Below, piece after piece: positions 1-26,123 of a stretch of 64,000 bases of DNA. The notes under the pieces were generated by a model that was not told the DNA's origin, searched no databases, and saw nothing but the letters and a program-made list of their open reading frames with translations. Made by a program: the position numbers and the translations under genes. The stretch is taken from positions 3,106-67,105 of the forward strand of contig CALXBX010000051.1 of the NCBI GenBank assembly GCA_944386655.1. The letters run 5' to 3'. This DNA comes from an uncultured Clostridia bacterium (lineage in GTDB: Bacteria > Bacillota > Clostridia > TANB77 > CAG-508). The stretch's first letter is position 1; each line of letters begins with the position of its first letter.

Positions 1-1
1 A

Positions 2-244
2 ACTACAACGATTGGCATACGATATCGTTATGAAAAAAGAAATGTTTTGCCAAGAGAAAAGGTAGAAGTAAATACAGAATATGGATTAGTGCAAGCAAAA
101 CAGGTAAAATTAGGAGAAGAAACCTATACTTATCCAGAATATGAAAGTCTTAAAAAGATTGCTGAGGAGCAGAATATTCCATTAAAAGACTTATATCAAT
201 TGGAGAATTGGGATAAAAAAATTATGGAAATAAGTAACCAATAA
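2..244 (+). CDS. larC: 3' end of LarC-type nickel insertion protein (partial, begins upstream of the window)
   Basis: The frame is open from the window edge. TTTIGIRYRYEKRNVLPREKVEVNTEYGLVQAKQV...PEYESLKKIAEEQNIPLKDLY resembles the conserved LarC C-terminal domain. The last codons and stop lie inside repeat box A. Confidence 0.6.
   Translation, partial: TTTIGIRYRYEKRNVLPREKVEVNTEYGLVQAKQVKLGEETYTYPEYESLKKIAEEQNIPLKDLYQLENWDKKIMEISNQ
221..240 (+). repeat. Box A: ATTATGGAAATAAGTAACCA, one of 5 same-orientation copies bounding the pilin-cargo gene blocks
   Basis: Identical 20-mer at 3369-3388 and 7931-7950, 1 mismatch at 12499-12518, 3 mismatches at 13637-13656. Confidence 0.85.
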
Positions 245-324
245 AAAACAAAAATAAATAATAAGAAAAAATAAAGAAACGATATAATCCTTCTCGTAGA
301 GAATAAAAACGAGGAGGATTTATT

Positions 325-1971
325 ATGCAGGAACAAAAGAATAAAGAAAGAGGAATTACACTAATTGCCTTAGTGGTAACGATAATTGTGCTAATTATTT
401 TGGCTGGAGTAAGCATTAACATGCTAGTAGGGGATAATGGAATTATTACGCAAGCACAGTCTGCACAAAGAGAAACAGAAGAAGCAGAAGCAAGAGAAAA
501 ATTAGAAATGGCATTACTAGACTTGCAAATGGAAAAGTATACAAATCCAAATTACAATGATGAGCAATTTATTACAGATTATCTAGCAAGTCAAGGAATG
601 GTAGCACAAGATGATATAGTGATAGTAGGAGATTACCAATTTATCATAGATAGAGAAAATCTAAGAGTAACACAGAGTTTAGGAAAAGGAAATGAAAGTT
701 CAACAATAGAAATAGGACTAAGCAGCCAATTAGCAAGCGATTACACAAAGGCAACACTAAGTGTAGAAATACAAGGAAGTGATGCGATTAGTAAAATACA
801 AATTAATGGAGCAGAAGTAAGTGTACCAGAGAAAACAGAGAATAAATATACATTAACGCAAGATGTGACGACAAATGGAAACTATAATGTTTATGTATTA
901 GACAGTAATGAAGAATACAAAATAGCACAGATTCAAATAGCAGGAATTTCAGAAGATATGCAAATTAGCACAAAAGAACAATTAGAGAGCCTTAGAGATA
1001 GGGTAAATAATGGAGCAACCTATGAAGGAAGAACAATAACCTTGCAGAATGATATCGACTTACAAGGAAATGAAGATAATCAGTGGATGCCAATAGGAAG
1101 AGATGATAGTCTTGCTTTTAAAGGGACTTTTTATGGAAATAATCATATGATTAAAAACATATATATAGATACTACGGAAGGTAATCAAGGTTTATTTGGT
1201 ACAGTATTAAATACAACCATACAAGATATAACAGTAACAGGAAGTATTGTAAATGCAGGTTCAGCCACAGGAGGAATAGTAGGAGCTTTAGGAAATTCGA
1301 TAATTATGAACTGTCATAATGAAGTAACTATATATAGTGGAGCAGGAATTCATGTTGGCGGTATTGCTGGTTATATGGATTCAAAATCCTCTGTTGTAAA
1401 TTGTAGTAACAACAGCAATATTACAGCATTAGGACGTTCAAGTAATGAACAGATGGAATCTTTTACAGGAGGAATAGCAGGAACGTGTGAAGGAAAAATT
1501 GAAAAGTGCTATAATGTAGGAGATATCTATGGATATTGCTTAGCAGGAGGAATAGCAGGAGGTATTTTACAAGGAGAAATTAGAGATTGTTATAATACAG
1601 GAAATATTAAAGTTGATTATAGAAAAGCAGGAGGAATAGTAGGTTATATTCATTATTACAGTGGTGGAACTGTAGGTTACACTAGAATTATCAATACTTA
1701 TAGTACAGGTATAGTGACAGGAACAACTCAAATTGGAGCTAGCATAGGTATGATTGCACTTGAGGAATCTACCATATTGCAGGCAGATAACAATTATGCC
1801 ATAAATCAAAATGATTTATCAGCAATAGGAGGAAATGTAACGAATACAAATGTAAAAGCTGAATTAAAAACAAGTGAAGAACTAAAACAATTAGCAACTA
1901 CTTTAGGAGAAGCATTTAAAAAAGATATAGAAAATATTAATGGTGGATATCCTGTTTTACAATGGCAATAA
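325..1971 (+). CDS. Prepilin-like N-terminal module fused to a GLUG-motif repeat domain
   Basis: GGAGG RBS 7 nt upstream. N-terminus is MQEQKNKERG|ITLIALVVTIIVLIILAGVSINMLVGDNGIITQAQ. The C-terminal half has repeated GGIAG/GGIVG (GLUG-type) motifs and ends INGGYPVLQWQ, as many GLUG proteins do. Confidence 0.7.
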   Translation: MQEQKNKERGITLIALVVTIIVLIILAGVSINMLVGDNGIITQAQSAQRETEEAEAREKLEMALLDLQMEKYTNPNYNDEQFITDYLASQGMVAQDDIVIVGDYQFIIDRENLRVTQSLGKGNESSTIEIGLSSQLASDYTKATLSVEIQGSDAISKIQINGAEVSVPEKTENKYTLTQDVTTNGNYNVYVLDSNEEYKIAQIQIAGISEDMQISTKEQLESLRDRVNNGATYEGRTITLQNDIDLQGNEDNQWMPIGRDDSLAFKGTFYGNNHMIKNIYIDTTEGNQGLFGTVLNTTIQDITVTGSIVNAGSATGGIVGALGNSIIMNCHNEVTIYSGAGIHVGGIAGYMDSKSSVVNCSNNSNITALGRSSNEQMESFTGGIAGTCEGKIEKCYNVGDIYGYCLAGGIAGGILQGEIRDCYNTGNIKVDYRKAGGIVGYIHYYSGGTVGYTRIINTYSTGIVTGTTQIGASIGMIALEESTILQADNNYAINQNDLSAIGGNVTNTNVKAELKTSEELKQLATTLGEAFKKDIENINGGYPVLQWQ

Positions 1972-1993
1972 AATATATTATAGCTAGGTGAAA

Positions 1994-2027
1994 ATATGGT
2001 GTACAAAAATGTACATCATATTTTTTT
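1994..2027 (+). terminator. Rho-independent terminator after the GLUG gene
   Basis: ATATGGTGTAC-AAAAAT-GTACATCATAT stem (one G.U) followed by a T7 run. A homologous copy is at 5410-5441. Confidence 0.75.
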
Positions 2028-2125
2028 ATGTCAAAAAGATATTAAATAAAAACAACCAAATAGGAGAAAAGAAAAAGTAAATGGGATAAAATTTCTTAAA
2101 ACAAAAAACGAAAGAGGGGAATGAA

Positions 2126-3286
2126 GTGAATAACAAAAGAAAACAAAAAGAGAGCGGTATTACATTAATAGCATTAGTGGTAACAATCATTGTTTTGATA
2201 ATCTTAGCAGGTGTAAGCATTAATATGATAATAGGAGATAATGGAATTATTACTCAGGCACAGAAAGCAGCAGAAGATACAAAATTGGCACAGGAAAAAG
2301 AAGCAATATCGTTAGCAATCTTAGAAAATGAATTAAGCGGTACAGAGCTGGAAATAGGAACAACATTATATAGCAAAACATTAGCAAATGGAAATAGATG
2401 GCATATATTAACTAATAAAAACGATGGGACAAGCTATGGAGATGGCTGGATATATATTCCGGAAAATACTAGTATTTCTAATTTTGGACAAACAACACAA
2501 AATTGGCTTGTCCATTCGCAAACAGGAGAGATACTATCTATAAGTATGGAAGATTATACAGAGACTTATTATGGAATGAACCTAGCTGTAACGGAAGGAC
2601 TGCTATTAAATGTAGATCCAGTGAATATGGAAGATGAAGATAGTTGGGGAGAAGGAGTAACATTATATGGAGTAACGCCGGGAGACGGTTATGGTTACAA
2701 TGGAGATGCTATTTTATTTGACGGAGTGAATGATTATATAGAGATTTATGCAGATACGCCAATTGACAAAGGGTTTACTTTTGAATTTTATGGAAAATCT
2801 GAAGATGATAGAATTAATATGTTAGCAAAAACCTTAATTGGAGAACAGGAAAATTATATTGGTAGATTTAGAATTAATATGATAGGAAATCAATTTAGAG
2901 CAGCATTTGCAGGAGGAGATGCTGGATCTGATTGGGGAATGTCTGACAATAATAAACATTGGATAGCAAAGCAATTAAATGGGGACTTTAGTGCTGAAAA
3001 TGGAGAATATCTTACGATGACAGTAAACTTAGAAACAGATACTATTACATTATATTTAAATGGTGAAAATATAGGTGCTACTGTATGTAATCATGATTGG
3101 TTGATATCAGGACAGTTAACGAATGGAGAAATTCCATTTACTATAGGATTAATAATTGCTGGAACAGAATATACGGAAACTTATTCTTCCATGGAACTAT
3201 ATGCATGTAGGTTATATAATAGAGTACTAACAGACGAAGAAATAACAGATAATTATGAAACAACAGTTGCTTATAGAGAACAATAA
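2126..3286 (+). CDS. Prepilin-like N-terminal module fused to a LamG/concanavalin-A-like lectin domain
   Basis: GTG start after AGAGGGG. N-terminus is MNNKRKQKESG|ITLIALVVTIIVLIILAGVSINMIIGDNGIITQAQ. LamG_3 hallmarks are FDGVNDYIEI, LYLNGENIG and the terminal RLYNRVLTDEEI. Confidence 0.8.
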   Translation: MNNKRKQKESGITLIALVVTIIVLIILAGVSINMIIGDNGIITQAQKAAEDTKLAQEKEAISLAILENELSGTELEIGTTLYSKTLANGNRWHILTNKNDGTSYGDGWIYIPENTSISNFGQTTQNWLVHSQTGEILSISMEDYTETYYGMNLAVTEGLLLNVDPVNMEDEDSWGEGVTLYGVTPGDGYGYNGDAILFDGVNDYIEIYADTPIDKGFTFEFYGKSEDDRINMLAKTLIGEQENYIGRFRINMIGNQFRAAFAGGDAGSDWGMSDNNKHWIAKQLNGDFSAENGEYLTMTVNLETDTITLYLNGENIGATVCNHDWLISGQLTNGEIPFTIGLIIAGTEYTETYSSMELYACRLYNRVLTDEEITDNYETTVAYREQ

Positions 3287-3322
3287 ATATCCATTTAAGT
3301 CAGTCTTTTTTATGACATGTCA

Positions 3323-3343
3323 CAAAAATGTCAGGGATAAGTG
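3323..3343 (+). repeat. Short repeat CAAAAATGTCAGGGATAAGTG (copy 1 of 2)
   Basis: An identical 21-mer lies at 10174-10194. It is preceded by the palindrome TTTTTATGACA/TGTCACAAAAA. Confidence 0.7.
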
Positions 3344-3368
3344 GGAAACCTAAGAATAATGTCGAAAA

Positions 3369-3388
3369 ATTATGGAAATAAGTAACCA
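3369..3388 (+). repeat. Box B (ATTATGGAAATAAGTAACCA)
   Basis: Identical to box A. Roughly 100 nt of downstream leader is also near-identical to 241-324. Confidence 0.85.
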
Positions 3389-3472
3389 ATAAAAAACAAA
3401 ATAAAGAGATAAGAAAAAATAAAGAAACGATATAATCCTTCTCGTAGAGAAAAATAACTAGGAGGATTTATT

Positions 3473-5380
3473 ATGCAGGAACAAAAGAATAAAGAAAGAG
3501 GAATTACTTTAATAGCCTTAGTGGTGACGATAATTGTGCTAATTATCTTAGCGAGTGTTTCTATTAATATGCTAGTAGGAGAAAATGGTCTTATTACAAT
3601 GGCACAGAGGGCGAAAAATGAGACAGAACAAGTGCAAAAAGAGGAAGAACAGGAATTAGCAGGGATATTTGGAAAGAATTATGCAGATTATAATGGAGAA
3701 TTACATATAGAAGGAGAAAAAGTTTTAAATCAATATAATGAACAAATTCAATTAAATGGATTATATTATGGTTATGGAAATTCAGAATATACAGAAGCAT
3801 TATTAACGGCATTGAAAAATAAAGGTGTAAATATGATAAAAATAGGATATAGCTATAGTGGAGGAACAGAACCATATAATAAAGAAGGAAATATGGAAGC
3901 AATGTATTCTTTTATAGATCAGTTGTTAGCGATGAACTTTTATATCGACATTATATATTGGTCAGGTAATGACTTGAATCAGGAAGGATATACTAAAGTA
4001 AATGAAGCTACAGATTATTTTACTCAAATAGCTAATAAATACCCAGATAATACACAAATCTTATATGAAATTTGTAATGAGCCTTTTGATAATACTTGGG
4101 GAGAAGTTAAGCAATATGCAGATAGTGTAATTCCTGAAATTAGGCAAATAAGTGAAAATGCAATAATATCTGTTCCAACAAATGATAATCTTTTTAATGA
4201 GACATTTCTATCAGATTTATTAAATTATAATAATATTATGTATGTAACTCATATATATGCAGAAGGAACGATTGCTGTTAAAAGCATGACTGCCGCAATT
4301 GCTAACAATAGTATACCTGTATTTATTTCGGAGTGGTCAAATAATAATGGGAATGAGACAAGCTATAATAATGAAGTAACAGATAATTTAATATATATAA
4401 TAAATAAATATAAACTAGCAAATTCTGCGTGGTATTTTTATGGTTCGAGTACAAGAGATTCGGAGTTTTTCATGATAAAAAAAGAGTATTGGGAAGAAGT
4501 GTTAAAAACTGGAAACATAAATGATAATGTGCTTGGAATAGCAGGAAAATATTATTTCGACTTTATACAAGGTTTCAATAAAGGGAAAGAAGAAGGAAAT
4601 TTAGTAAATGCTAATTATATTAATTCTTTAATGTTCTGGGAGGAAAAATACAGAACAAATATTACGAAAATAATATTTGAAGATAAAATAAATGTACCGG
4701 ATAATGCTTTAATGGTGTGGGATGTATCTGACAATAATTCTGGAACAATTATAGCATATTTAATAGATGATGGTAAAAATAATGGAACATATGAGTTATA
4801 CATTTGTGGAAATAATGAAAAAGTAAAAGTTGTTTCATTATCTCTCACTTTTCGTGATTTTACAAAGTTAGAATATATAGATATAACACAGATGGATACT
4901 AGAAAGGTTAAATCAATGTATAATATGTTTGGAAATAATCAAAATTTACAAACAATAATTGGTTTAGAAAATATAGATACATCAAATGTAACTAATATGC
5001 AAGAAATGTTTTATGCCTGCGCACAGTTAACTAAATTAGATGTAAGTAATTTTAATACATCAAATGTAATTAACATGAGCTCTATGTTTAATGGAGCAGG
5101 CATGAGGAATTCCAATTTTGAGTTGATTTTGGGAGAAAAGTTTGATACCTCTAAGGTTACTAATATGACATATATGTTCTATTTAACTGGAATTGCAAAT
5201 CCAAATTTTATTTTAGATTTGAGAAGCTTCACATTTAAAGATGATGTAGATGTTACAAATATATTTACTTTTATGAAAGCAACAACAATAGTCTATGTAA
5301 AAGATGAAGAAATGCAACAGTTTGTTATAAATGCAAGAGGAGAAAATGCATGGTCTACAGCAAATGTTTTAATTAAATAG
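3473..5380 (+). CDS. Prepilin-like N-terminal module fused to a divergent GH5 (cellulase family A) domain and DUF285/BspA-type repeats
   Basis: N-terminus is MQEQKNKERG|ITLIALVVTIIVLIILASVSINMLVGENGLIT. It has the ILYEICNEPF acid/base motif, THIYAEG and FISEWS. The C-terminus has FNTSNVxNMxxMF-type DUF285 repeats. Confidence 0.7.
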   Translation: MQEQKNKERGITLIALVVTIIVLIILASVSINMLVGENGLITMAQRAKNETEQVQKEEEQELAGIFGKNYADYNGELHIEGEKVLNQYNEQIQLNGLYYGYGNSEYTEALLTALKNKGVNMIKIGYSYSGGTEPYNKEGNMEAMYSFIDQLLAMNFYIDIIYWSGNDLNQEGYTKVNEATDYFTQIANKYPDNTQILYEICNEPFDNTWGEVKQYADSVIPEIRQISENAIISVPTNDNLFNETFLSDLLNYNNIMYVTHIYAEGTIAVKSMTAAIANNSIPVFISEWSNNNGNETSYNNEVTDNLIYIINKYKLANSAWYFYGSSTRDSEFFMIKKEYWEEVLKTGNINDNVLGIAGKYYFDFIQGFNKGKEEGNLVNANYINSLMFWEEKYRTNITKIIFEDKINVPDNALMVWDVSDNNSGTIIAYLIDDGKNNGTYELYICGNNEKVKVVSLSLTFRDFTKLEYIDITQMDTRKVKSMYNMFGNNQNLQTIIGLENIDTSNVTNMQEMFYACAQLTKLDVSNFNTSNVINMSSMFNGAGMRNSNFELILGEKFDTSKVTNMTYMFYLTGIANPNFILDLRSFTFKDDVDVTNIFTFMKATTIVYVKDEEMQQFVINARGENAWSTANVLIK

Positions 5381-5409
5381 ATGTTGTTAAGAAAATAATA
5401 AATATAAAA

Positions 5410-5441
5410 ATATGGTGTGCGAAAAAGTACATCATATTTTT
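5410..5441 (+). terminator. Rho-independent terminator after the first GH5 gene
   Basis: ATATGGTGTGC-GAAAAA-GTACATCATAT stem followed by a T run. It is a paralog of 1994-2027. Confidence 0.7.
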
Positions 5442-5542
5442 ATGTTAAAAAGATAACAGCTAAAAACGAAAAAGTAAAAGACAGAGGAAAATAGCTAAGA
5501 TAAAATAATTCGTGTAAAAATAAGAAACGAAAGAAGGAAAGA

Positions 5543-7930
5543 GTGATGCAGAATAAAAGCAAAAAAAGAAATACAGGGATTACCTTAATTGCACTAATCA
5601 TAACAATTATCATTTTAATTACATTAGCGGGAGTTTCTATTAATATGCTAGTAGGAGAAAATGGTCTTATTACAATGGCACAGAGGGCAAAGAATGAGAC
5701 AGAACAAGCACAAAGAGAGGAAGAACAGGCATTAGCAGGAATATTTGGAAAGAATTATGTGGATTATAATGGACAGTTAAGCATAAAAGAAGGAAAATTA
5801 ACAAATCAGTATGAGGAAAATGTAGTTTTAAGAGGAATGAGTGCGGGAAATGGAAAGGGAATAGAAAGCTTAACAGAAAAATACTATAATAAAGAGTCTT
5901 TATCCGTAATAAAAAGTTGGGGAGCAAATGTACTTAGAATACCAGTAGATACAGATGCGTATTATCAAGGATATGCTTCTAATCCAGATATTATCAATAG
6001 AGTGTCTGAAATTGCAGATATATGTATAGAATTAGATATGTATGCCATAATAGATTGGCATGTGTTATATGAAGGAAATCCAAATACTTATGCAGAACAA
6101 GCAAAAGAATTCTTTAGTCAGATAGCAACTAAATATAAGGATGTGCCAAATATTTTATATGAAATCTGTAATGAACCAAACGGAGATGATGTGACATGGG
6201 AAGTAATAAAAAATTATGCAAATGAGATAATACCAGTAATAAGAAATATAGATAGTGATTCTATTGTAATAGTAGGCACACCTTCATGGAGCCATAATGT
6301 GGATGAAGTAGTTGGTAGTGAATTAGAACATAGTAATATAATGTATACATCTCATATGTATGCATCCACTCTAAATTCTGATAGAATGAATAGACTTAAA
6401 ACCGCAGTTGAGAATAATATACCAGTAATTGTTACAGAGTTTGGAACAGCAGTGACAGGGTGGGGAACACAGGATGGATTGTTGTTAGAAAATTCAAATA
6501 TAATTGCAAATTATATGGAAGAAAATAATATAAGTTGGTGTAATTGGAGTATGACTGACCATTATGAAGGCTTGGCACTGGTAAAATATAATCAATGGGA
6601 TAATTCTTTAAATGATAATATTCTAAGTGAAAGTGGAAAATATATAAAACAATTATTACAAAATGCACAAATACAAAATAATCCAGTTATGATGGAATAT
6701 GAAGAAAATTATGCATTTTGGAATGAAGAATATAGAAATAATGTTACTAGTATTATCATAGAAAATGAAATAGACAATGATAAAATTAATAATGCAGTAG
6801 AACATTGGGATGTATCGTTTGCAAACAACAATAGTGTTATAGCATATATAGAAAATGATTCAGAAAATGCTGGCAAATATATATTGCATATAACAGGAGA
6901 AGGTGGAGTATATTGTGCTCCCAATAGTAGGAATTTATTTAGTGATTTTATAAGTTTAAAAAATGTAGATTTTAATAATTTAGATACAACCAATGTTAAT
7001 GATATGGGATTTATGTTTTCTGGAGATGTTGAGCTTGAAAGTATAGATTTAAAAAATTTCAAAACGAATAATGTTACGTATATGGAAAGAATTTTTTACA
7101 ATTGTGCAAATTTAAAAACTTTGGACTTCTCGAGTTTTGACTTTACAAAAGTAGTAAGATTTTATGAAGCATTTGGGAAATGTACTAATTTAGAAAGTAT
7201 AAAATTTCCAACACAAAAAAGTGATATGATAAGTGTGTTGGGATTATTTAGTCATTGTGAAAATTTAAAAGAGATAGATTTGAGTTCATTTAATACAGAA
7301 AGAGTTACCGCAATGAATGGAATGTTTTCCTATTGTTATAATATTGAAGGTATAAATTTTGGAGATACTTTTAGTACAGAAAATGTTACTTCTATGAGAG
7401 AAATGTTTTACCAATGTAATTCATTAAAAAAATTAGATTTAAGCAAATTTAATACATCTAAGGTTACAGATATGTATTATATGTTTGGAGGTTGCTATAG
7501 TTTACAAACTCTTGATTTAAAGAACTTTAATACAGAAAACGTAGAGAACATGAGTAGAATGTTTCATAACTGCAATAGCCTTACTACTTTAAATGTGTCA
7601 TCATTTAACACATCTAAGGTTACAAATATGGCATATATGTTTCAGGTATGTAGACAATTAACACAATTAGATTTAAGTAATTTTGATACATCTAATGTAA
7701 CAGATATGACTTTTATGTTGAGTAATTTGAATAATGTACAGAAAATTAATTTAAGTAATGCTAATTTTGATAGTGTAAAAAGTTATGATAACATGCTAAC
7801 TTATACTAATTCTTGGAAAAATGCAATAATAATAGTAAAAGATGAAAATGCAAAAAGTTTTATACAGTCACGTTTAGATGAAGTTGGTAATACGGCAGAA
7901 ATACAGATAAGTAACGGACAACAAGAATAG
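5543..7930 (+). CDS. Prepilin-like N-terminal module fused to a GH5 glycoside hydrolase and about 8 DUF285/BspA-type repeats
   Basis: Start is GTG 5543 or ATG 5546 after AAGGAA. N-terminus is ..KKRNTG|ITLIALIITIIILITLAGVSINMLVGENGLIT. A full GH5 residue set is visible: VLRIPV, IIDWHV, ILYEICNEPNG, SHMYAS, VIVTEFG. Repeats follow the pattern FNTxxVTxMxxMF. Confidence 0.8.
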   Translation: MMQNKSKKRNTGITLIALIITIIILITLAGVSINMLVGENGLITMAQRAKNETEQAQREEEQALAGIFGKNYVDYNGQLSIKEGKLTNQYEENVVLRGMSAGNGKGIESLTEKYYNKESLSVIKSWGANVLRIPVDTDAYYQGYASNPDIINRVSEIADICIELDMYAIIDWHVLYEGNPNTYAEQAKEFFSQIATKYKDVPNILYEICNEPNGDDVTWEVIKNYANEIIPVIRNIDSDSIVIVGTPSWSHNVDEVVGSELEHSNIMYTSHMYASTLNSDRMNRLKTAVENNIPVIVTEFGTAVTGWGTQDGLLLENSNIIANYMEENNISWCNWSMTDHYEGLALVKYNQWDNSLNDNILSESGKYIKQLLQNAQIQNNPVMMEYEENYAFWNEEYRNNVTSIIIENEIDNDKINNAVEHWDVSFANNNSVIAYIENDSENAGKYILHITGEGGVYCAPNSRNLFSDFISLKNVDFNNLDTTNVNDMGFMFSGDVELESIDLKNFKTNNVTYMERIFYNCANLKTLDFSSFDFTKVVRFYEAFGKCTNLESIKFPTQKSDMISVLGLFSHCENLKEIDLSSFNTERVTAMNGMFSYCYNIEGINFGDTFSTENVTSMREMFYQCNSLKKLDLSKFNTSKVTDMYYMFGGCYSLQTLDLKNFNTENVENMSRMFHNCNSLTTLNVSSFNTSKVTNMAYMFQVCRQLTQLDLSNFDTSNVTDMTFMLSNLNNVQKINLSNANFDSVKSYDNMLTYTNSWKNAIIIVKDENAKSFIQSRLDEVGNTAEIQISNGQQE

Positions 7931-7950
7931 ATTATGGAAATAAGTAACCA
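7931..7950 (+). repeat. Box C (ATTATGGAAATAAGTAACCA)
   Basis: Identical 20-mer starting immediately after the GH5 stop codon. About 45 nt downstream still resembles the box A flank. Confidence 0.85.
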
Positions 7951-8087
7951 CAAGAAAACAAAAATAAATAATAAGAGGAAATCAAGAAAAGTACCTTGCC
8001 AAAATAAAGAAAAAAATATATAATTCCCCTAGAAACAAGTATATAAAAAACAAACTTGTTGCATAATAATACAAAAGGAGAAAAGCA

Positions 8088-8642
8088 ATGACAGAGAAAG
8101 AAAAAATGTTGCAGGGGCAATTATATGATGCCAATCATAATCCAGAATTAATTGCAGAGAGGCAAAAAGCAAAGGAAATTTGTTTTAACTATAATCAAAC
8201 CATACCAACGAATATGGAAAAAAGAACAGAAATATTGAAGAATTTATTAGGAAGTACAAAAAATAATTTCCTAATAGAGCCTTCTTTTCAATGTGATTAT
8301 GGGTATAATATTCATATAGGAGAAAACTTTTATGCTAATCATAATTTAGTGATATTAGATGCAGCAGAAGTCACCTTTGGAGACAATGTGTTAATAGGAC
8401 CAAACTGTGGATTTTATACAGCAGGACATCCTAGTAATGTAGAACAAAGAAGAGCAGGGTTAGAATATGCAAAACCAATTCATATTGGAGATGATGTATG
8501 GATAGGTGGAAATGTAGCAGTTTTGCCGGGAGTTACTATAGGAAATAATAGCATTATAGGAGCAGGTAGTGTAGTGAACAAAGATATTCCATCGGGAGTA
8601 ATAGCAGTAGGAAATCCTTGCAAAGTAGTGAAAAAAATATAA
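8088..8642 (+). CDS. maa: Maltose/galactoside O-acetyltransferase family (hexapeptide repeat)
   Basis: MTEKEKMLQGQLYDANHNPELIAERQKAKEICFNYN is the Mac-type N-terminal domain. It is followed by left-handed beta-helix hexapeptide repeats (IGDDVWIGGNVAVLPGVTIGNNSIIGAGSVV). Confidence 0.85.
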   Translation: MTEKEKMLQGQLYDANHNPELIAERQKAKEICFNYNQTIPTNMEKRTEILKNLLGSTKNNFLIEPSFQCDYGYNIHIGENFYANHNLVILDAAEVTFGDNVLIGPNCGFYTAGHPSNVEQRRAGLEYAKPIHIGDDVWIGGNVAVLPGVTIGNNSIIGAGSVVNKDIPSGVIAVGNPCKVVKKI

Positions 8643-8650
8643 AAATTTCC

Positions 8651-8679
8651 TTGCAAACCCTAAGGTAATATAGTATAAT
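8651..8679 (+). promoter_or_regulatory. SigA-type promoter of the tyrS leader
   Basis: TTGCAA, 17-nt spacer, TATAAT. Confidence 0.7.
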
Positions 8680-8685
8680 TATAAA

Positions 8686-8922
8686 CAACTTTATTTAATT
8701 ATGTTTGAAAAGAAAATAGTAGGAGACTATTGTGACAAAAGAGAGATAATGAAAGGTGAAAATTATCCGTAAATAGAAAATCCGAATTACATTTCTTATA
8801 GTAATTAGCGTGTAAGCAGCGAGATGCTTAAAAATAAAGAGGCATGTAAAAAATTACATGTAAATAAAGGTGGTACCACGAGTCAAATCGTCCTTTACTA
8901 AAAGGATAGTTTGGCTCTTTTT
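8686..8922 (+). promoter_or_regulatory. T-box leader with a tyrosine (UAC) specifier controlling tyrS
   Basis: AGAGA motif in stem I. UAC followed by A at 8788-8791. Conserved T-box AAAGGTGGTACCACGAG at 8866-8882. Terminator stem 8881-8916 plus T run. Confidence 0.85.
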
Positions 8923-8952
8923 AGTATAAAAATAAAAGAGAGGAGAAAAAAG

Positions 8953-10191
8953 ATGACATTAGTAGAAGAATTAAAATGGAGGGGACTAATCAAAGACATT
9001 TCTAGTCCAGAACTAGAAGAAAAACTTAATCAAGGAGGATTAACTTTTTATATAGGAACAGACCCTACAGCAGATAGCTTGCACGTAGGACATTTATCTA
9101 GCTTTTTAATATCCAAAAGGCTAAAAGAAGCAGGACATACTCCTATCTTATTAGTAGGAGGAGGAACAGGAATGATAGGAGATCCTAGACCTACTACAGA
9201 AAGAGCGATGATATCTAAAGAAGAAGTAACCAAAAACTTTGAAGGACTAAAAGCACAAGTAGAAAAGTTATTTGGCTTTGAAGTTGTAAACAATTACGAC
9301 TGGCACAAAGATATCAACGTGTTAGATTTCTTAAGAGATTACGGAAAATACTTTAATATTAACTACATGTTAGATAAAGATATTATTAGAAGAAGATTAG
9401 ACACAGGTATTACTTATACAGAATTTTCTTACATGATTTTACAAGCGTTAGATTTTAAATATCTACATGAGCATAAAAATGTAGATTTGCAATGTGCAGG
9501 TTCCGACCAATGGGGAAATATTACAGCAGGAATTGATTTAATTAGAAAATCAACAGGAGATGAAGTATACGGCTTTACTATGCCACTTGTCACCGATTCC
9601 CAAGGAAAGAAATTTGGAAAGAGTGAAGGAAATGCTCTATGGCTTGATAAAGAAAAAACATCTAGTTATAAGCTATATCAATTCTTTGTAAATGTAGAAG
9701 ATTGTATGGTAATTGATTACCTAAAAATCTATACCTTCCTATCCAAAGAAGAAATAGAAGAATTAGAAAAAAGAAATCAAGAACACCCAGAACTAAGAGA
9801 AGCCCATAAAGCCCTTGCAAGAGAAATTATTACCTTTTTACATGGAAAAGAAGAATATGAAAGAGCCGTGAATCTTGCAGACCATTTATTCCATAATAAA
9901 TTCCAAGATTTATCTAAGAAAGATATAGAAGATTTATTTGGAAGCGAAGAAAAAAAGATAGTAGAAGAAGGAATGAGCATTTTAGATGCACTAGTTCAAG
10001 TAGGAGCAGCAAGCAGTAAAAGAGAAGCAAGAGAATTTGTAGCAAACGGAGCTGTTTCCATTAATGGTGAAAAAGTAACAGACGTAAATGCAGAAATAAC
10101 AGCGGCAAGCTTTATAGAAGGAACCTATATTGTTATCAAAAGAGGAAAGAAAAATTACTATATAGGAATGTCTCAAAAATGTCAGGGATAA
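8953..10191 (+). CDS. tyrS: Tyrosine--tRNA ligase
   Basis: MTLVEELKWRGLIKD..., HVGHL (HIGH) and KFGKS (KMSKS) motifs, C-terminal S4 domain. ATG 8953 follows AGAGAGGAG. The ORF-track start at 8911 lies inside the T-box terminator. Confidence 0.95.
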   Translation: MTLVEELKWRGLIKDISSPELEEKLNQGGLTFYIGTDPTADSLHVGHLSSFLISKRLKEAGHTPILLVGGGTGMIGDPRPTTERAMISKEEVTKNFEGLKAQVEKLFGFEVVNNYDWHKDINVLDFLRDYGKYFNINYMLDKDIIRRRLDTGITYTEFSYMILQALDFKYLHEHKNVDLQCAGSDQWGNITAGIDLIRKSTGDEVYGFTMPLVTDSQGKKFGKSEGNALWLDKEKTSSYKLYQFFVNVEDCMVIDYLKIYTFLSKEEIEELEKRNQEHPELREAHKALAREIITFLHGKEEYERAVNLADHLFHNKFQDLSKKDIEDLFGSEEKKIVEEGMSILDALVQVGAASSKREAREFVANGAVSINGEKVTDVNAEITAASFIEGTYIVIKRGKKNYYIGMSQKCQG

Positions 10192-10235
10192 GTGAGACAT
10201 GTCTCATTTAACCCTGACTTAAGTGGGACACTTAA
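10174..10235 (+). repeat. Palindromic element overlapping the tyrS stop codon (contains copy 2 of the 21-mer)
   Basis: The 21-mer is identical to 3323-3343. There is a 19-bp hairpin GTCAGGGATAAGTGAGACA/TGTCTCATTTAACCCTGAC (10181-10218, one mismatch), then TTAAGTG-GGA-CACTTAA (10219-10235). Confidence 0.75.
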
Positions 10236-10263
10236 AAAGAAAAAAGGGGAAAAAGGAAGAAAA

Positions 10264-11406
10264 ATGGCAGATAAACAAGAATGGGAAGAATTAGAAAAAT
10301 GGTATAGAGAGAAACAAGAGAAAAATAGAGAAGAATATGGTTTTGATAAAAGTGTTTTAGAAGAAAAGAAACCGTTAAAAGAATCGGTAAGAACTACCAT
10401 GCACTCTGTTGTAGAAATGAAAAATATTGTATGGATTATTTTGGTAGTTCTTTGCTGTATTCTTATCTTCTTTATTTTAAATAGATTATATTTTGCTACC
10501 CATAAAACAGACGAACAGAAAGTTATAGAAACAGCCAAAAGTTTATATGGCGTGGATTGTAGCGTTGTGCAGAAAAAAGAGTTAGAAGAAGGAAAAAATA
10601 AATATACTTTGCAAGTAAATAACCAACCGGAAGTGACATTTCAATGTGTGAAAACGGGAGGTGGTTATGCTTTTGATTATACATCTTATAGCCACCAACG
10701 CTATTTTGAACAGTGGAAAAGCGAGAAAAAAGAACAGTTTGTAGTAGAAGAGAAAACTACAACAGATGGATTATTCCAATATGAAACTTATATTCCAATA
10801 ACGGTAGAAGATTTTGAGGTTATTGAGAATAAAATTGAGGACATAGGAGAATTTGTAGAATATGCAGGAGAAAATTATTCCCCCTTTTGGAATGTGTATT
10901 TAGCTTATGGAGAAAGTAGAATTTATCCTTATAGTGGTATGCCCTCTCAAATAGATAAGGAACAAGCAGTAGAAGAGAGTAAGAGAACCTTTATAAATTA
11001 CATAATGAAGAAAGAGCCAGAAGAGGCAAGACAATTGTACTCTACAGAAATCTTAAATACTTATTGGAAACCAACTGCTTTAAAAGTGGTACTAAATGGA
11101 AAAGAAATACCGATAACGAATTCTGTAGTACAAATGTATTATTCTACACAAGAAAAAGAATATACATTACAACTCTATACAGAGTTCGTAAAACAAATAA
11201 ATGGAGTAGAAATTATTAGTAGAGCAGAAATGATGCCGACAGAATTTTCGTATGGAGGACATACCTACACTGTAACGAATAAGGATACAAATTTGGAAAA
11301 ATATCAATTAGGTTATACTTTGAGCCTACAGGAATTAGAAGAACTATTTCATGCGAAAATAGAATTGGATAAGGAAGAAGAAATAGCATGGATTACAATA
11401 CCATAA
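10264..11406 (+). CDS. Hypothetical single-pass membrane protein
   Basis: ATG after AAGGAAG. Charged N-terminus, one TM (IVWIILVVLCCILIFFIL), then an extracytoplasmic domain of about 280 aa with no motif I recognise. Confidence 0.5.
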   Translation: MADKQEWEELEKWYREKQEKNREEYGFDKSVLEEKKPLKESVRTTMHSVVEMKNIVWIILVVLCCILIFFILNRLYFATHKTDEQKVIETAKSLYGVDCSVVQKKELEEGKNKYTLQVNNQPEVTFQCVKTGGGYAFDYTSYSHQRYFEQWKSEKKEQFVVEEKTTTDGLFQYETYIPITVEDFEVIENKIEDIGEFVEYAGENYSPFWNVYLAYGESRIYPYSGMPSQIDKEQAVEESKRTFINYIMKKEPEEARQLYSTEILNTYWKPTALKVVLNGKEIPITNSVVQMYYSTQEKEYTLQLYTEFVKQINGVEIISRAEMMPTEFSYGGHTYTVTNKDTNLEKYQLGYTLSLQELEELFHAKIELDKEEEIAWITIP

Positions 11407-11508
11407 AATTTTTAGAAAAGGGCTTACAAAAAAATAAGTGGTATGATAAGATAGCATTAGGGGAAAAATAAAAGGGAATACATAAGAAAAAACAAAAGGA
11501 GAAAAAAT

Positions 11509-11952
11509 ATGCTATTTAATATTCTAGCAATTTTTGTAGGACTAGCCCTTCTAGTGATAGGTGCGGATATATTAGTAAAAGGGGCTAGCAACATAGCCAA
11601 AAAATTTCATATTCCAGAAATTTTAATAGGACTTACTATTGTAGCAATAGGAACAGCTCTTCCAGAAATGGTAACTTCTTTAATAGCAGTCATTACAGGC
11701 GATGCCGATATAGCAGTAGGAAATTTAATTGGTTCTAGTGTATTAAATTCTTTCCTTATTTTAGGAATAGGAGCAGCCATTACACCACTTACCATTTCAG
11801 CAGAATTTACAGAAAATTTATTACTTCTTATCTTCTCTACTGCCTTGCTTTGGTTGTTCTGCTATTTGCCAAAAAAAGATACGCTAACAAGACCAAAAGG
11901 ATTGATTTTAGTCCTAATTTTTGCAATATACATGATAAAATTATTTGTGTAA
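11509..11952 (+). CDS. Half-size Ca2+/cation antiporter (CaCA/YrbG-like) with a single alpha-repeat
   Basis: MLFNILAIFVGLALLVIGADILVKGASNIAKKFHIPEILIGLTIVAIGTALPE is the N-terminal Na_Ca_ex repeat. The ORF stops after about 5 TM segments (147 aa), whereas full-length family members have two repeats. Confidence 0.6.
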   Translation: MLFNILAIFVGLALLVIGADILVKGASNIAKKFHIPEILIGLTIVAIGTALPEMVTSLIAVITGDADIAVGNLIGSSVLNSFLILGIGAAITPLTISAEFTENLLLLIFSTALLWLFCYLPKKDTLTRPKGLILVLIFAIYMIKLFV

Positions 11953-12034
11953 AGAAAAAACATATATTTTTCGCATAAGAAAGCAAGAAGCTGGAAATAA
12001 TGAAAATAAGAAAACAAAAAGGAGTGGAAAATAT

Positions 12035-12472
12035 ATGGAAAAAACCGTAAGTTGTTTAAATCAATTTTTAGCAGATTTAGCAGTATTTTATAGAAAACTG
12101 CAAAATTTTCATTGGAATGTAGAGGGAAAAGATTTTTATGTTATTCATGCAAAACTAGAAGAATATTACGATGACATCAATGAGCAAATTGACGAAATAG
12201 CAGAATACATCTTAAGCATAGGAGGGCAACCTTTGGGAACTATGAAAGACTACATGCAAATTACAAAAATACAAGAGGCGGAAAATGTAAAAGTAAAAAG
12301 TGATGCTGTATTATCTTGTTTAATAAAAGATTATGAAACTATTTTGCAAGAAGCAAAACAAATCAAACAGGAAAGTGATACAAACAATGATGCACAAACC
12401 TCTACTATGATGGATGACTATATTGAAGATTATAGTAAAAAGTTATGGATGTTACGTCAAACAATGGCATAG
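12035..12472 (+). CDS. dps: Dps-family DNA-protection/ferritin-like protein
   Basis: LNQFLADLAVFYRKLQNFHWNVEGKDFYVIHAKLEEYYDDINEQIDEIAEYI. ATG 12035 follows AAAGGAG. Confidence 0.9.
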   Translation: MEKTVSCLNQFLADLAVFYRKLQNFHWNVEGKDFYVIHAKLEEYYDDINEQIDEIAEYILSIGGQPLGTMKDYMQITKIQEAENVKVKSDAVLSCLIKDYETILQEAKQIKQESDTNNDAQTSTMMDDYIEDYSKKLWMLRQTMA

Positions 12473-12498
12473 AGGAAAAGATAATAATATATTAAAAA

Positions 12499-12518
12499 AT
12501 TATGGAAACAAGTAACCA
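12499..12518 (+). repeat. Box D (ATTATGGAAACAAGTAACCA)
   Basis: 19/20 identity to box A. It is followed by the same GATATAATCCTTCT leader. Confidence 0.8.
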
Positions 12519-12601
12519 GCAAAAAATAAAGAGTTATAAAATGAAAAATAGTAAAAAAGATATAATCCTTCTTGTTAAAAGAGACAAGGAGGATTTTTAT
12601 T

Positions 12602-13606
12602 ATGCAAAAGAATAAAGAAAACGGAATTACAATGGTTACATTAGCAGTAACTATTATTGTAATAATCATTTTAGCTGGTGTAAGTATTAACACTTTAATT
12701 GGAGATAATGGAATTATTACGAAGGCGCAGCAAGCAAGAAAAAATATAGAATTAGCACAAGTAGAAGAACAAACGTCTTTGAATCAGTTGTATGAACAGA
12801 TGGAGCAAGAAGGAAAATATGAAGAAGATGAGGAATCACAACAAAAAGATGAAATGATAAAGTCCTTGCAAGAACAGTTAGAAGAACGAAGTAAAGAAAT
12901 AGAAGAATTAAAAAAACAATTGCAGATTTACAAATTAAAAGAAGGGGATTATATTCAATATGATACAGGAGTAGAAGGAGTAGGTAAAATAACTTGTAGA
13001 GTCTTGTATACAGCAAGTTCAAAGTATGGATTACAAATTATTGCAGATGAAGGCGTAGAAACAGTATCATTAGGAGTGATGGATAACCTTGAAGCATCAA
13101 AAACAAGTTATAATAATGCGATAGAAACATTAAATCGTAAAGCGGAAACATATATTAATACAACATATGCTACAGATGCAAGATGTGTAGGAAGTGTGCC
13201 AACAGTAGAAAATGGAGTATTTATCAATAAAAATTCGGAAACAGCAGGACCTGTTACAATGCAATTTGCATACAATGGAAGTACGAGTATAGATGCTAAA
13301 GGAGAAGATACAAATTATACGGCAGATGAAGAACAATTGAGAAGTTTCAATCTTTTAGTAACAGGCTATGAATATTGGTTATCTTCTCGTTATATATTTT
13401 CCAATTCTACTGGCTGTGGGTTAAATATACGCAGAATAACAGCATCTGGAAGTTTATTTTATGGCGACATGTGTTCTATTTATTATACAGGAAAAGCTGT
13501 TGGAAGAGGTTATGACTTTGCTCTTCGTCCTTGCATTCTTTTAAGAGACGATATAGAAATAGTAGGTGGAAATGGAAGTGAAGAAAAACCGTATATAATA
13601 GGTTAA
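12602..13606 (+). CDS. Prepilin-like N-terminal module fused to a coiled-coil and an unknown C-terminal domain
   Basis: ATG after AAGGAGG. N-terminus is MQKNKENG|ITMVTLAVTIIVIIILAGVSINTLIGDNGIITKAQQA. This is followed by a Glu/Lys-rich coiled segment and a Cys-containing domain of about 210 aa (..YWLSSRYIFS..RPCILL). Confidence 0.65.
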   Translation: MQKNKENGITMVTLAVTIIVIIILAGVSINTLIGDNGIITKAQQARKNIELAQVEEQTSLNQLYEQMEQEGKYEEDEESQQKDEMIKSLQEQLEERSKEIEELKKQLQIYKLKEGDYIQYDTGVEGVGKITCRVLYTASSKYGLQIIADEGVETVSLGVMDNLEASKTSYNNAIETLNRKAETYINTTYATDARCVGSVPTVENGVFINKNSETAGPVTMQFAYNGSTSIDAKGEDTNYTADEEQLRSFNLLVTGYEYWLSSRYIFSNSTGCGLNIRRITASGSLFYGDMCSIYYTGKAVGRGYDFALRPCILLRDDIEIVGGNGSEEKPYIIG

Positions 13607-13636
13607 GCATAAAAAATGCAAGAAATAATGTTGAGA

Positions 13637-13656
13637 ATTATGAAAATGAGTAAACA
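13637..13656 (+). repeat. Box E (degenerate: ATTATGAAAATGAGTAAACA)
   Basis: 17/20 identity to box A, same orientation, 30 nt after the stop of gene 12602-13606. Confidence 0.55.
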
Positions 13657-13675
13657 ACAGGATAAAATACGCACA

Positions 13676-13704
13676 TTGACATTTCCTTCCCATAAGTATA
13701 TACT
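13676..13704 (+). promoter_or_regulatory. SigA-type promoter of the class B PBP gene
   Basis: TTGACA, 17-nt spacer, TATACT. Confidence 0.65.
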
Positions 13705-13734
13705 TTAAAAAAGAAATAGAGAGGGGAGAAGAAA

Positions 13735-15768
13735 ATGTACCAGAAAAGTAAAAAGGTAGTGATAATAGTTGCCATTTTTGTAATTTTATTAGCGGTAAGT
13801 GTGGCTGGGTTCTTTATATGGTATAACAATACAAAAGCAAATCCAGAAGATACATTGGTGTCTTATATAGATGCTTTAAAAGCAAAAGATTACGAAACCA
13901 TGTATAGTAAAATTAGCAAGGAAAGTAAAGATAGTACTACAAAAGAAGATTTTATAGCGAGAAATAAAAATATTTATGAAGGTATAGAAGCAAGCAATTT
14001 ATCGATTAGTATTGCTCAAGTAACAGAGGAAGGAAATAAAGCACAAATTGTTTATTCTACTACCATGCAGACTGTGGCAGGACAAATGAGTTTCTCTAAT
14101 ACAGCAAATTTAGTAAAAAATGCAGAAAATGGATATGATATAGAATGGTCTTCTAATCTTATTTTCCCAGAATTGCAAGATGATTATAAAGTAAGAGTAC
14201 AAACCTTAGAAGGAACAAGAGGAAGAATATTAGATAGAAACGATGTCGTTCTTGCAGGAAAACAAACAGCCTCTTCTATTGGATTAGTACCAGGAAAAAT
14301 GGGAGAAAATAAGGAAGAAGACATAGCAAATATTGCTACTTTGTTAGACATTTCAGAAAATACGATTCAAAATGCACTATCAGCTTCTTATGTAAAAGAT
14401 GACACCTTTGTACCTTTAAAAACAGTACAAAAAGGGGAACAAGAGTTAAAAAATCAATTGTTAGAAATTTCTGGCATTAAAATTATAGATACAACTGCAC
14501 GTGTCTATCCATTAGGAGAAGCAACCTCTCACCTATTAGGATATGTACAAACTATTAGTGCAGAAGAATTAAAAGAAAATGTAAATAGAGGGTATACCAA
14601 TACCAGTGTAATAGGAAAAACTGGTTTAGAAAAGACATATGAAGACACCTTAAAAGCTACAGATGGAGCGGAAATTTATATTGTAGATGCAGAAGGAAAT
14701 AAAAAGAAAACACTTGCTAAAAAGCAAGAGCAAAATGGTAAAGACGTGAAATTAACCATAGATTCTACTATTCAACAAAAATTATACAATCAATTAAAAG
14801 AAGATAAGGCAGCAGCAGTTGCTATGAATCCAAATACAGGAGAAATTTTAGCATTAGTCAGTTGTCCTACTTTCAATTCGAATGATTTTAGCTTAGGAAT
14901 GACGACAAACCAATGGAATCGTTTGTCTCAAGATGAAACAAAACCATTATACAATCGTTATCTTCAAACTTATGTGCCAGGTTCTGGATTTAAACCAATT
15001 ACAGGTGCAATTGGTTTAGATACAAGCTCTTTTACAGCAGAAGAAGATTTTGGAACAAGTGGAACAAAATGGCAAGCATCAAATAGCTGGAGAGATTTCT
15101 ATGTTACCACACTAACAACTTATAGCGGACCAGCTAATTTGCAAAACGCTCTTATTTATTCGGATAATATTTACTTTGCAAAAGCAGGAATAAAAATAGG
15201 AAAACAAAATTTTATGAATAAATTAAATGTTTTAGGATTTGCAAAAAAGATTTCTTTTGAACAAGAACTAGCCATGTCTACTTATTCTAACAATAGTAGT
15301 TTTGATACAGAAACACAGTTAGCAAATACTGGCTATGGACAAGGGGAGCTTTTAGTTAATCCCGTACATATGGCAATGATATATTCTAGTTTCGCTAACG
15401 AAGGAAATATGCTTCAAGCATATTTGCTATATAAAGAAGATAAAACACCTACCTATTATGCAGAGCAAGTATTTTCGAAGGAAACAGCAAATACTATAAA
15501 GGAAGATTTAATACAGGTAGTGGAAAATCCAAATGGAACAGCACATAGTGCTAAGATAAATGGTGTGGTTTTAGCTGCTAAAACAGGAACTGCAGAAATA
15601 AAGGATAGCAAAGAGGATACCGAAGGAACGGAATTAGGATGGTTTAATGCTTTTACTGCGGACAAAAATGCCCAAAATCCATTATTAATTGTTAGCATGG
15701 TAGAAGATGTAAAGGGAAGAGGCGGAAGCCATTATGTGTTAGAAAAAATAAAGCCAATGTTTGAATAA
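13735..15768 (+). CDS. Class B penicillin-binding protein (transpeptidase) with a MecA-type NTF2-like N-terminal domain
   Basis: N-terminal TM. The NTF2-like segment reads YIDALKAKDYETMYSKISKES. Transpeptidase motifs are SGFK (SxxK), SDN and KTGT. Confidence 0.9.
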   Translation: MYQKSKKVVIIVAIFVILLAVSVAGFFIWYNNTKANPEDTLVSYIDALKAKDYETMYSKISKESKDSTTKEDFIARNKNIYEGIEASNLSISIAQVTEEGNKAQIVYSTTMQTVAGQMSFSNTANLVKNAENGYDIEWSSNLIFPELQDDYKVRVQTLEGTRGRILDRNDVVLAGKQTASSIGLVPGKMGENKEEDIANIATLLDISENTIQNALSASYVKDDTFVPLKTVQKGEQELKNQLLEISGIKIIDTTARVYPLGEATSHLLGYVQTISAEELKENVNRGYTNTSVIGKTGLEKTYEDTLKATDGAEIYIVDAEGNKKKTLAKKQEQNGKDVKLTIDSTIQQKLYNQLKEDKAAAVAMNPNTGEILALVSCPTFNSNDFSLGMTTNQWNRLSQDETKPLYNRYLQTYVPGSGFKPITGAIGLDTSSFTAEEDFGTSGTKWQASNSWRDFYVTTLTTYSGPANLQNALIYSDNIYFAKAGIKIGKQNFMNKLNVLGFAKKISFEQELAMSTYSNNSSFDTETQLANTGYGQGELLVNPVHMAMIYSSFANEGNMLQAYLLYKEDKTPTYYAEQVFSKETANTIKEDLIQVVENPNGTAHSAKINGVVLAAKTGTAEIKDSKEDTEGTELGWFNAFTADKNAQNPLLIVSMVEDVKGRGGSHYVLEKIKPMFE

Positions 15769-26108: not shown

Positions 26109-26123
26109 AAAGAGTTAAAAGAA

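Follow-up and report, generated by a model that had tools for sequence, protein, structure and literature searches.

The question raised by the locus described here is what a 20-nt sequence, termed the box, does at the edges of blocks of pilin-like genes in an uncultured Clostridia bacterium. The DNA analysed was a stretch of 64,000 nucleotides (GenBank assembly GCA_944386655.1, contig CALXBX010000051.1, positions 3,106 to 67,105 of the forward strand), referred to throughout as the window, in which copies of the box lie between the genes larC and maa and at a separate pilin-like gene further downstream. A first-pass annotation, made from the sequence alone, had offered three explanations: a cassette recombination site of attC or dif type, a by-product of serial duplication seeded from the 3' end of larC, or a distal operator shared by the gene family. 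The last of these is the best supported, on the grounds of fixed spacing and orientation, the lack of a −35 hexamer and a conservation above that of the neighbouring spacer, and the box is read here, with a probability of roughly 0.55, as the outermost control element of a promoter unit copied before pilin-like genes and as a presumptive factor-binding site.

The box and the promoter module that it opens

A pattern scan of the window identified exact copies of the box at 221, 3369 and 7931, a copy with one mismatch at 12499 and a copy with three mismatches at 13637, all on the plus strand and compared with a chance expectation of 0.03 matches in shuffles, so that all five coordinates of the first-pass annotation were confirmed far above chance. 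A sixth match, with three mismatches, was located at 35821, in frame within the RNase R gene, indicating that matches of this quality can arise from codon usage or chance in this genome. The complete copies open a module of constant order, which runs from the box (20 nt) through a spacer, the decamer GATATAATCC, a hairpin, AGGAGG and an ATG to the leader peptide MQ(E/K)QKNK..., measures about 105 bp from box to start codon and continues into conserved pilin-type coding sequence (MQ(E/K)QKNK..G/ITLIALVV...). The box is the outermost, that is the upstream-most, conserved element of this portable unit. As annotated, similarity extends 3' of the box: over 103 nt, the copies at boxes B and D are 89% and 75% identical to the copy at box A, respectively, and at box C similarity continues for only about 45 nt.

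Sixteen intact modules with the canonical decamer, drawn from the window, two sister metagenome-assembled genomes (MAGs) and further metagenomes, were used to define the geometry of the unit. The start of the box precedes the start of GATATAATCC by 59-61 nt in all of them, always in the orientation of the gene, and such constancy of distance and orientation with respect to the core promoter is what marks a transcription-factor site. The spacer is 40 nt long in the majority of intact modules, with an overall range of 39-41 nt, and is 71% A over 18 copies (the 16 intact modules plus two orphans upstream of maa), with no 10-11 nt periodicity that would indicate helical phasing of its A-tracts; a further module, L118, combines a variant decamer, GATATAATTT, with a 39-nt spacer. 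A sigma-70-type consensus scan called no −35/−10 pair at the module promoters and found the maa promoter in the same run. In the absence of a −35 hexamer, an activator site is the best reading of the box.

To measure conservation in copies free of the selection imposed by an exact-match search, seven modules not found via the exact-box scan were compared, three of them reached via their protein (L114, L118 and one of L121), three being neighbours within fetched loci (the other of L121 and two of L019) and the seventh being that of box D in the window. Their boxes carry 0-3 mismatches and stand at the usual distance from the −10 element. Mismatches to the consensus amount to 10/140 in the box and 47/287 in the spacer (Fisher p = 0.009), the spacer differing by 16% from the consensus and by 24% pairwise, so that the box is conserved above the neighbouring non-coding DNA, modestly but measurably. 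The effect comes mainly from positions 1-10, where 1/70 positions deviate and conservation is similar to that of the −10 decamer, which defines ATTATGGAAA as the constrained core. Between orthologs of the GLUG gene, the boxes are identical and the spacers differ at about 17/40 positions. Mean identity within genomes equals that between genomes for every part of the module, hence no sign of recent homogenisation was seen, and concerted evolution within genomes, considered as a candidate explanation, is not supported.

The features of the window used in this analysis are as follows.

47..244, plus strand: larC 3' end; Pfam Ni_insertion ends at residue 50/65, and the last 7 codons and stop (IMEISNQ-stop) come from box A
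221..240, plus strand: box A, exact match, 5' edge of the GLUG/LamG operon promoter module; homology to strain types X and Y stops at 220
241..280, plus strand: A-rich spacer of 40 nt without a −35 hexamer; no sigma-70-type site called
281..290, plus strand: decamer GATATAATCC, with the presumed −10 element TATAAT at 283-288
287..319, plus strand: hairpin; 5' arm 287-297 begins inside the −10 element, 3' arm 309-319 holds the Shine-Dalgarno sequence AGGAGG
325..1971, plus strand: gene with pilin-type N-terminus and GLUG cargo (Pfam, N-terminus alignment)
2021..2125, plus strand: degenerate, second-class upstream region of the LamG gene, with box-like TTTATGTCAAAAAGATATTA and −10-like GATAAAAT
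2126..3286, plus strand: gene with pilin-type N-terminus and LamG/ConA-like cargo
3300..3367, plus strand: remnant of a GTCAGGG palindrome resembling repetitive extragenic palindromic (REP) sequences, followed by AATGTCGAAA; the upstream extension of 'long-form' modules
3369..3388, plus strand: box B, opens the promoter module of the GH5 pair; −10 decamer at 3429-3438
3473..5380, plus strand: gene with pilin-type N-terminus, GH5 and DUF285
5546..7930, plus strand: gene with pilin-type N-terminus, GH5 and DUF285/LRR; upstream region degenerate
7931..7995, plus strand: box C with roughly 45 nt of spacer; an orphan, truncated module preceding the maa promoter
7996..8024, plus strand: maa promoter of sigma-70 type, TTGCCA-17-TATAAT, 11/12 matches
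8088..8642, plus strand: maa, maltose O-acetyltransferase-like (Pfam)
12499..12518, plus strand: box D (T11C), heads gene 12602-13606; decamer 12559-12568, hairpin 12564-12595; the ortholog L011 has the same variant
12602..13606, plus strand: gene with pilin-type N-terminus, coiled coil and cargo without assigned function, followed by a PBP gene in the Pfam layout
13637..13656, plus strand: 'box E', 3 mismatches; 5 mismatches in the ortholog L011; probably a chance match or a decayed remnant

The Pfam assignments agree with the annotated layout of larC 3' end, GLUG, LamG, GH5 + DUF285, GH5 + DUF285 and maa. All five pilin-like genes of the window share the same N-terminus, which resembles a class III signal (..G/ITLIALVVTIIVLIILAGVS). 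The module opens three operons, namely GLUG + LamG, GH5 + GH5 and gene 12602-13606; the second gene of each pair (starting at 2126 and 5543/5546) is preceded by a degenerate region with about 12/20 box matches, in which the −10 element is GATAAAAT and the hairpin is absent. These upstream regions of LamG and GH5b (the second GH5 gene) are an older, degenerate version of the module.

The hairpin lies at 287-319, 3435-3467 and 12564-12595 in the three window modules. Across the module alignment, 94% of cells in the hairpin are paired, compared with 52-63% when the partner columns are slid, and three pairs show compensatory changes. The predicted fold has −16.7 kcal/mol when the −10 region is part of the transcript and −2.9 kcal/mol for a transcript beginning near 295, which suggests that the hairpin forms only in transcripts begun upstream of the promoter and may insulate the gene from read-through. 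The box itself is unpaired in predicted RNA and single-strand DNA folds, and an Rfam scan of the window matched no family; a cis-regulatory RNA is therefore not indicated, the structured part being confined to the hairpin between the −10 element and the ribosome-binding site. By manual inspection, the box showed no convincing match to the consensus sequences of sigma-54, sigma-D, sigma-H, cre, CodY, AbrB or LytTR. The sequence TGTCGAA beside long-form boxes resembles a Spo0A box and was set aside as it is absent from short-form modules.

Three further candidates were rejected. Minus-strand open reading frames ending at the box (222-422, 7932-8120 and 13638-13829) are low-complexity translations of the T-rich strand. 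A leader peptide starting at the ATG within the box would read MEISNQ-stop only in copies A and B, the other copies giving unrelated lengths and lacking a ribosome-binding site. An older box copy within the 3' end of GH5b (AEIQISNGQQE-stop compared with IMEISNQ-stop) scored 34, not significantly above shuffles (26.4 ± 4.1, maximum 41).

The mechanism set out next is inferred from the sequence, in its protein binding and transcription start as well as in what the hairpin does. A DNA-binding protein specific to the family, most simply an activator, would bind the core ATTATGGAAA at about −74 to −65, given a transcription start about 7 nt after TATAAT, and, acting across the A-rich spacer, would recruit RNA polymerase or position it. 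Transcripts of the module's own promoter would start inside the 5' arm of the hairpin and leave the ribosome-binding site free, and read-through transcripts, holding the whole hairpin, would be poorly translated or terminated. About 270 bp of repeated module DNA, together with a run of A residues found before most boxes, probably forms a substrate for homologous and microhomology-mediated recombination, by which cargo genes between larC and maa may be gained, lost and exchanged.

Distribution in relatives and at block borders

The search for the 20-mer in related genomes, which the first-pass annotation had proposed, showed that the box heads genes of the pilin-like family and is confined to one narrow lineage. 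An exact-box scan of species-representative genomes returned ten loci, five in each of two uncultured Clostridia MAGs and all on different contigs. Six boxes head a pilin-like gene beginning MQxQKNK, one of these genes (L016) being interrupted shortly beyond the signal helix; three belong to truncated modules without an intact pilin start (L014, L015 and L019 at 4236) and one is an orphan upstream of maa (L018). An additional neighbouring copy, with 2 mismatches, lies at position 4811 of L019 upstream of an AAA-ATPase/PDDEXK_9 gene. Overall, dispersed genes headed by the module occur in four or more related lineages of uncultured Clostridia, and in the genome CAMMAC01 the GLUG and LamG orthologs stand at separate loci, each with its own box. 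The lineages carrying the box are the window species, CAMMAC01, CALXAS01 and ERZ2916219. A homolog search with the 71-residue N-terminus returned mostly proteins of 47-125 residues, several of them truncated pilin N-termini, and these short homologs served only as handles for fetching contigs. A metagenome scan based on the N-terminus yielded 518 related stretches confirmed by tblastn, and the box was present in 1 of the 80 fetched metagenome loci (L029), whose upstream region is identical to L012 of CAMMAC01, which argues that the box is restricted to one lineage. Plasmid and phage collections gave no match.

Several observations concern the wider family. The pilin-type N-terminus (window 325-440 and its paralogs; L029-L108) carries Ala at mature position 5, where Glu is usual (G/ITLIA), and this Ala5 form is common in gut metagenomes (the 518 stretches). 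Other lineages of the family carry recurring upstream motifs of their own, for example TTTTAATTACAGGATGTRATATAAGTTTT and GGTATGATAATATATCATATAAAAGGT (L033, L040, L048, L049, L063, L068, L072, L074, L085 and L091; and L039, L069, L089, L099 and L108), and shared promoters specific to a lineage appear to be a general property of the pilin-like family. Decayed copies are numerous (L014, L015, L016, L019 at 4236, L114, L118, L121 and downstream of LamG in L013), in the form of modules without a gene or of N-termini of 53-63 residues cut by deletion, and in L120, one copy of the truncated L118-type gene, transposase genes of an insertion sequence (IS) follow directly. The family apparently turns over by birth and death.

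These loci also bear on the earlier statement that the box stands at both borders of every block. The repeat itself is real; its presence at the 3' border is not general. Each operon opens with a module, and with the operons arranged head to tail a box that comes after one block belongs to the next. No 3' box was found at L012, L017, L020 or the end of the L121 array, and in L013 only a decayed, box-less module follows the gene. Given the drift of box E in L011, the block headed by box D is not convincingly bounded at its 3' side. Box C is an exception, being a truncated module of box and about 45 nt, 46 nt ahead of the −35 hexamer in the maa promoter. In the sister species CALXAS01 (L018) maa is preceded by the same orphan, which there follows a different gene and a terminator, so that the orphan predates the split from CALXAS01; among the strain types described below it is present in type Y and absent in type X. 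The AAA-ATPase/PDDEXK_9 gene, which lies upstream of box C in some strains, has a half-palindrome and box-like sequence of its own (L126 8860-8955, L019 4760-4900); this box-like sequence has 2 mismatches in L019, is degenerate in L126 and begins some 86 nt before the TATAAT in a TGGTATAAT promoter.

Strain variation between larC and maa

At least five arrangements, with differing pilin-cargo content, were found between larC and maa among strains whose LarC proteins are 95-100% identical.

Type W (the window; L111 spans larC to GH5b): larC joined to box A, GLUG, LamG, box B, GH5a, and GH5b joined to box C, maa
Type W' (L022 in full length; L024, L026 and L028 as partial contigs with the same upstream region): the genes of type W at 98.75% identity
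Type X (L122): larC*, a 72-residue gene on the opposite strand, a different promoter, GLUG' and LamG' at 84% identity, and directly after them maa; box nowhere
Type Y (L126-129; maa-proximal part also in L006-008): larC*, the 72-residue gene, LamG'', a degenerate box, the AAA-ATPase/PDDEXK_9 gene, a REP, box C, maa
L130-132: larC joined to the box promoter, with another cargo gene behind it; homology to the window extends as far as about 487, inside the conserved N-terminal coding part

The comparison of strains at box borders, also proposed by the first-pass annotation, was divided in its outcome. Two junctions fall exactly on base 1 of the box (220/221 against types X and Y, 7930/7931 against type Y), and several lie elsewhere: at the ribosome-binding site in type W', where a box-less upstream region is joined at window position 308/309; in the N-terminal coding part in type X and L130; after the −10 element in L014 and L015; and, in type X, at 82 nt upstream of box B and 65 nt downstream of where box C starts. 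Across window 1-8100, compared with L122, L126-129, L130-132 and L022, identity is mosaic, with 98-99.5% in larC, 81-84% in GLUG and LamG and 94% from maa to tyrS. The exact junctions, together with the differing cargo behind the junction of larC with the box, mark the larC-maa interval as a recombination-prone variable locus. The shared promoter and signal module is likely to act as the recombination handle, and tandem arrangement of units combined with recombination of modules would account for the pattern at block borders and for the strain polymorphisms.

The 3' end of larC allowed the duplication hypothesis to be judged. As annotated, box A codes for the end of LarC (...IMEISNQ-stop), and L111, from an independent assembly, agrees with the window at 400/400 nt. 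LarC variants of 95-100% identity mostly end in ...W(D/E/K)KK-stop without a box, and larC alleles joined to the box read it in two frames (...KKIMEISNQ-stop or ...IMEISNY-stop, and ...DWKKLWK-stop). The KK-stop ends and the two frames together identify the IMEISNQ tail as a secondary result of the junction; the box was not seeded by larC, and serial duplication from the larC 3' end is refuted. Box-less strains are identical or nearly so to the window up to 220, where GGGATAAAAAA is followed by TAAATG... as against ATTATGG... in the window. The A-run at this junction is the one that precedes most boxes elsewhere, making joining by microhomology plausible at larC. Crossing of box A with box C would leave a deletion product of about 438 residues, and none was seen among the 27 closest LarC matches (95-100% identity), which measure 401-416 residues. 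In LarC proteins P0121-P0148, the length of a His-rich stretch varies between close strains, for a total of 397-416 residues.

Weighing the readings and what they imply

Several points weigh against an operator. A candidate regulator of the box was sought within the window and none was found. The site would be centred near −65 to −70, behind a 40-nt spacer and far from polymerase, and since the spacer is itself patterned by A-tracts, part of the fixed spacing may reflect shared descent. In the seven modules, variation at box positions 11-20 is about that of the spacer, and ten of the related loci came from an exact-box search and are hence biased. Orphan boxes stand 86-88 nt upstream of the −10 element of unrelated genes (maa, and the AAA-ATPase/PDDEXK_9 gene in L019), off the usual spacing, and are either remnants or a sign that the box is not specific to pilins; moreover, the maa promoter of strain type X looks functional and has no box. 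Finally, the larC-box junction recurs on at least three allele backgrounds of larC, and the two junctions on base 1 of the box are more regular than random breakpoints.

The alternative that survives best, although still unlikely, is that the box is the functionless 5' end of a duplicated stretch comprising promoter and pilin N-terminus, with copies that are young or gene-converted. Its confinement to one narrow lineage, the 89% identity of copies A and B over the whole module, the variable positions 11-20 and the frequency of decayed modules and pseudogenes, which fit turnover by birth and death, are all as this would predict; a near-invariant positions 1-10 beside a diverging spacer, the lack of within-genome homogenisation and the 5' limit common to all copies are not.

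Less probable than this is a site-specific crossover, in which a recombinase would use the box to move cassettes of box, promoter and cargo at set positions in the chromosome, for instance the 3' end of larC and the 5' region of maa, in the manner of integron attI/attC or Mycoplasma vis/RS sites. Relative to strain type Y, the segment 221-7930 opens with a box and ends right before one; the larC-box junction occurs on several larC backgrounds beside box-less counterparts and with differing cargo behind it, and the sequence to the left of box C is not the same in three genomes, yet abuts the box in each. Against these stand the single-unit loci without a second box, the presence of a promoter (−10) in every unit, the lack of dyad symmetry and of single-strand structure, the junctions away from the box, the missing deletion product of LarC and the microhomology account of the larC junction offered by the A-run. 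In addition, the long-form extension (palindrome and GTCGAAA, the latter part of AATGTCGAAA) travels with the box where the left neighbour is not a pilin gene, so that homology crosses the supposed crossover point. DNA folds of the box ±15 nt reach −0.5 to −0.9 kcal/mol, no better than shuffles, unlike those of attC. No recombinase gene lies beside the arrays, and the sole tyrosine recombinase found, in a scan of the open reading frames at 1-41.3 kb and 52.9-53.8 kb, is XerD-like and lies at 22283-23164 beside spoIIM, 14 kb from box C. Insertion of cassettes at an attC- or dif-like site, as first suggested, is therefore not supported.

Integron arrays resemble the locus in having short conserved sequences between successive genes and a gene content that varies by strain, and differ from it in that here no integrase was found, the box does not fold, the genes have promoters and single units are one-sided, whereas cassettes are mostly promoterless and bounded by sites on two sides. 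Sites of dif/Xer type measure about 28 bp and have two inverted 11-bp arms around a centre of 6-8 bp; in the box only TGG...CCA (3 bp) pairs, and the flanks are not conserved between copies. In the Mycoplasma vsp, vpma and vsa loci (vis/RS/vrs sites), one promoter is moved by inversions with the help of an adjacent Xer-like recombinase. The likeness lies in the many paralogs with near-identical upstream region and signal, divergent mature parts and strain-variable, recombination-prone loci; here, in contrast, each gene has its own −10 element, the window copies are all direct, the box is oriented like the gene behind it in every copy read, and no adjacent recombinase was found. An unrecognised recombination system, with box and A-run as the crossover point at which units are installed and swapped at larC and maa 'expression sites', is a long shot. 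It would explain the two base-1 junctions, the larC-box junction on several alleles and the differing cargo, and would, if true, provide strain-specific repertoires of displayed enzymes and adhesins.

The most doubtful of these alternatives, that the box is the terminus of a non-autonomous mobile element (of REP, miniature inverted-repeat transposable element or palindrome-associated transposable element type) made up of GTCAGGG palindrome, GTCGAAA and box with an outward promoter, can draw on the direct abutment of the palindrome and AATGTCGAAA on the box in at least eight modules, the palindrome compound between an intact box and the maa promoter in L018 and the presence of at least two REP-like palindrome families in the genome, but the palindrome is missing from A, D, L013, L014, L015 and L121, also occurs alone (e.g. 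at 10179-10220), and comes with no linked transposase, no target duplications and no plasmid or phage match.

The palindromes themselves are of two kinds. One, a REP-like perfect palindrome, GAACTTTAGGGACGTTCCTTAAAGTTC, is intergenic at 25972-26000, 26081-26111, 33382-33412 and 33489-33521 and also occurs in L008, L012, L015, L016 and L018. The second family, with the loop GTCAGGG/CCCTGAC, was found at 3328-3350 and 10179-10220 and in L011, L014 and L016-L020; beside the box it is followed by AATGTCGAAA, which contains the TGTCGAA noted above, and the resulting long-form extension is also present in L012, L016, L017, L018, L019, L020 and L114. Elsewhere in the window, a PD-(D/E)XK_2 'transposase' (Rpn-like) gene at 37075-37854 and a DUF1828/DUF1829 gene at 52943-53755 flank a polysaccharide-synthesis cluster.

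The reading of the box as the distal element of a promoter unit has its closest parallels in other systems. Activator-dependent promoters (class I type, e.g. CRP-dependent, or assisted by an UP element) have an upstream site and lack a −35 hexamer. They share with the module a good −10 element, a fixed upstream site and A/T-rich DNA in between; the box differs in having no visible dyad, in lying about one helical turn upstream of the classical −61.5 and in that its function is predicted. In IS10, translation of the transposase from read-through transcripts is inhibited by fold-back of the RNA, and the module hairpin would likewise sequester the ribosome-binding site only in transcripts begun upstream of its own promoter, here as judged from sequence, covariation and folding.

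The gene products also have a precedent. In Streptococcus sanguinis, PilB (vWA) and PilC (ConA-like lectin) are pilins with bulky C-terminal modules, and Glu5 is described as critical for filament assembly and not for processing (PMC6497953). The window proteins likewise fuse a class III signal peptide and N-terminal helix to large domains, ConA/LamG-like ones included, and differ in having Ala5 in place of Glu, in carrying GH5, GLUG and DUF285 cargo and in forming a dispersed family in place of one pil locus.

On present evidence the box is not a new kind of genetic element; multigene families with a common promoter and signal sequence are already known, and the box is a lineage-specific addition to them. 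If it is an operator, it would mark out, in uncultured gut Clostridia, a small regulon of cargo proteins with a pilin signal, comprising cellulase-family GH5 enzymes, lectin-like proteins and GLUG proteins, and could serve as a probe for the regulator. The variable larC-maa locus is a more interesting by-product of the analysis than the box itself: it is a hotspot at which close strains differ in their sets of surface or secreted proteins, and its variability bears on strain-level carbohydrate use and adhesion.

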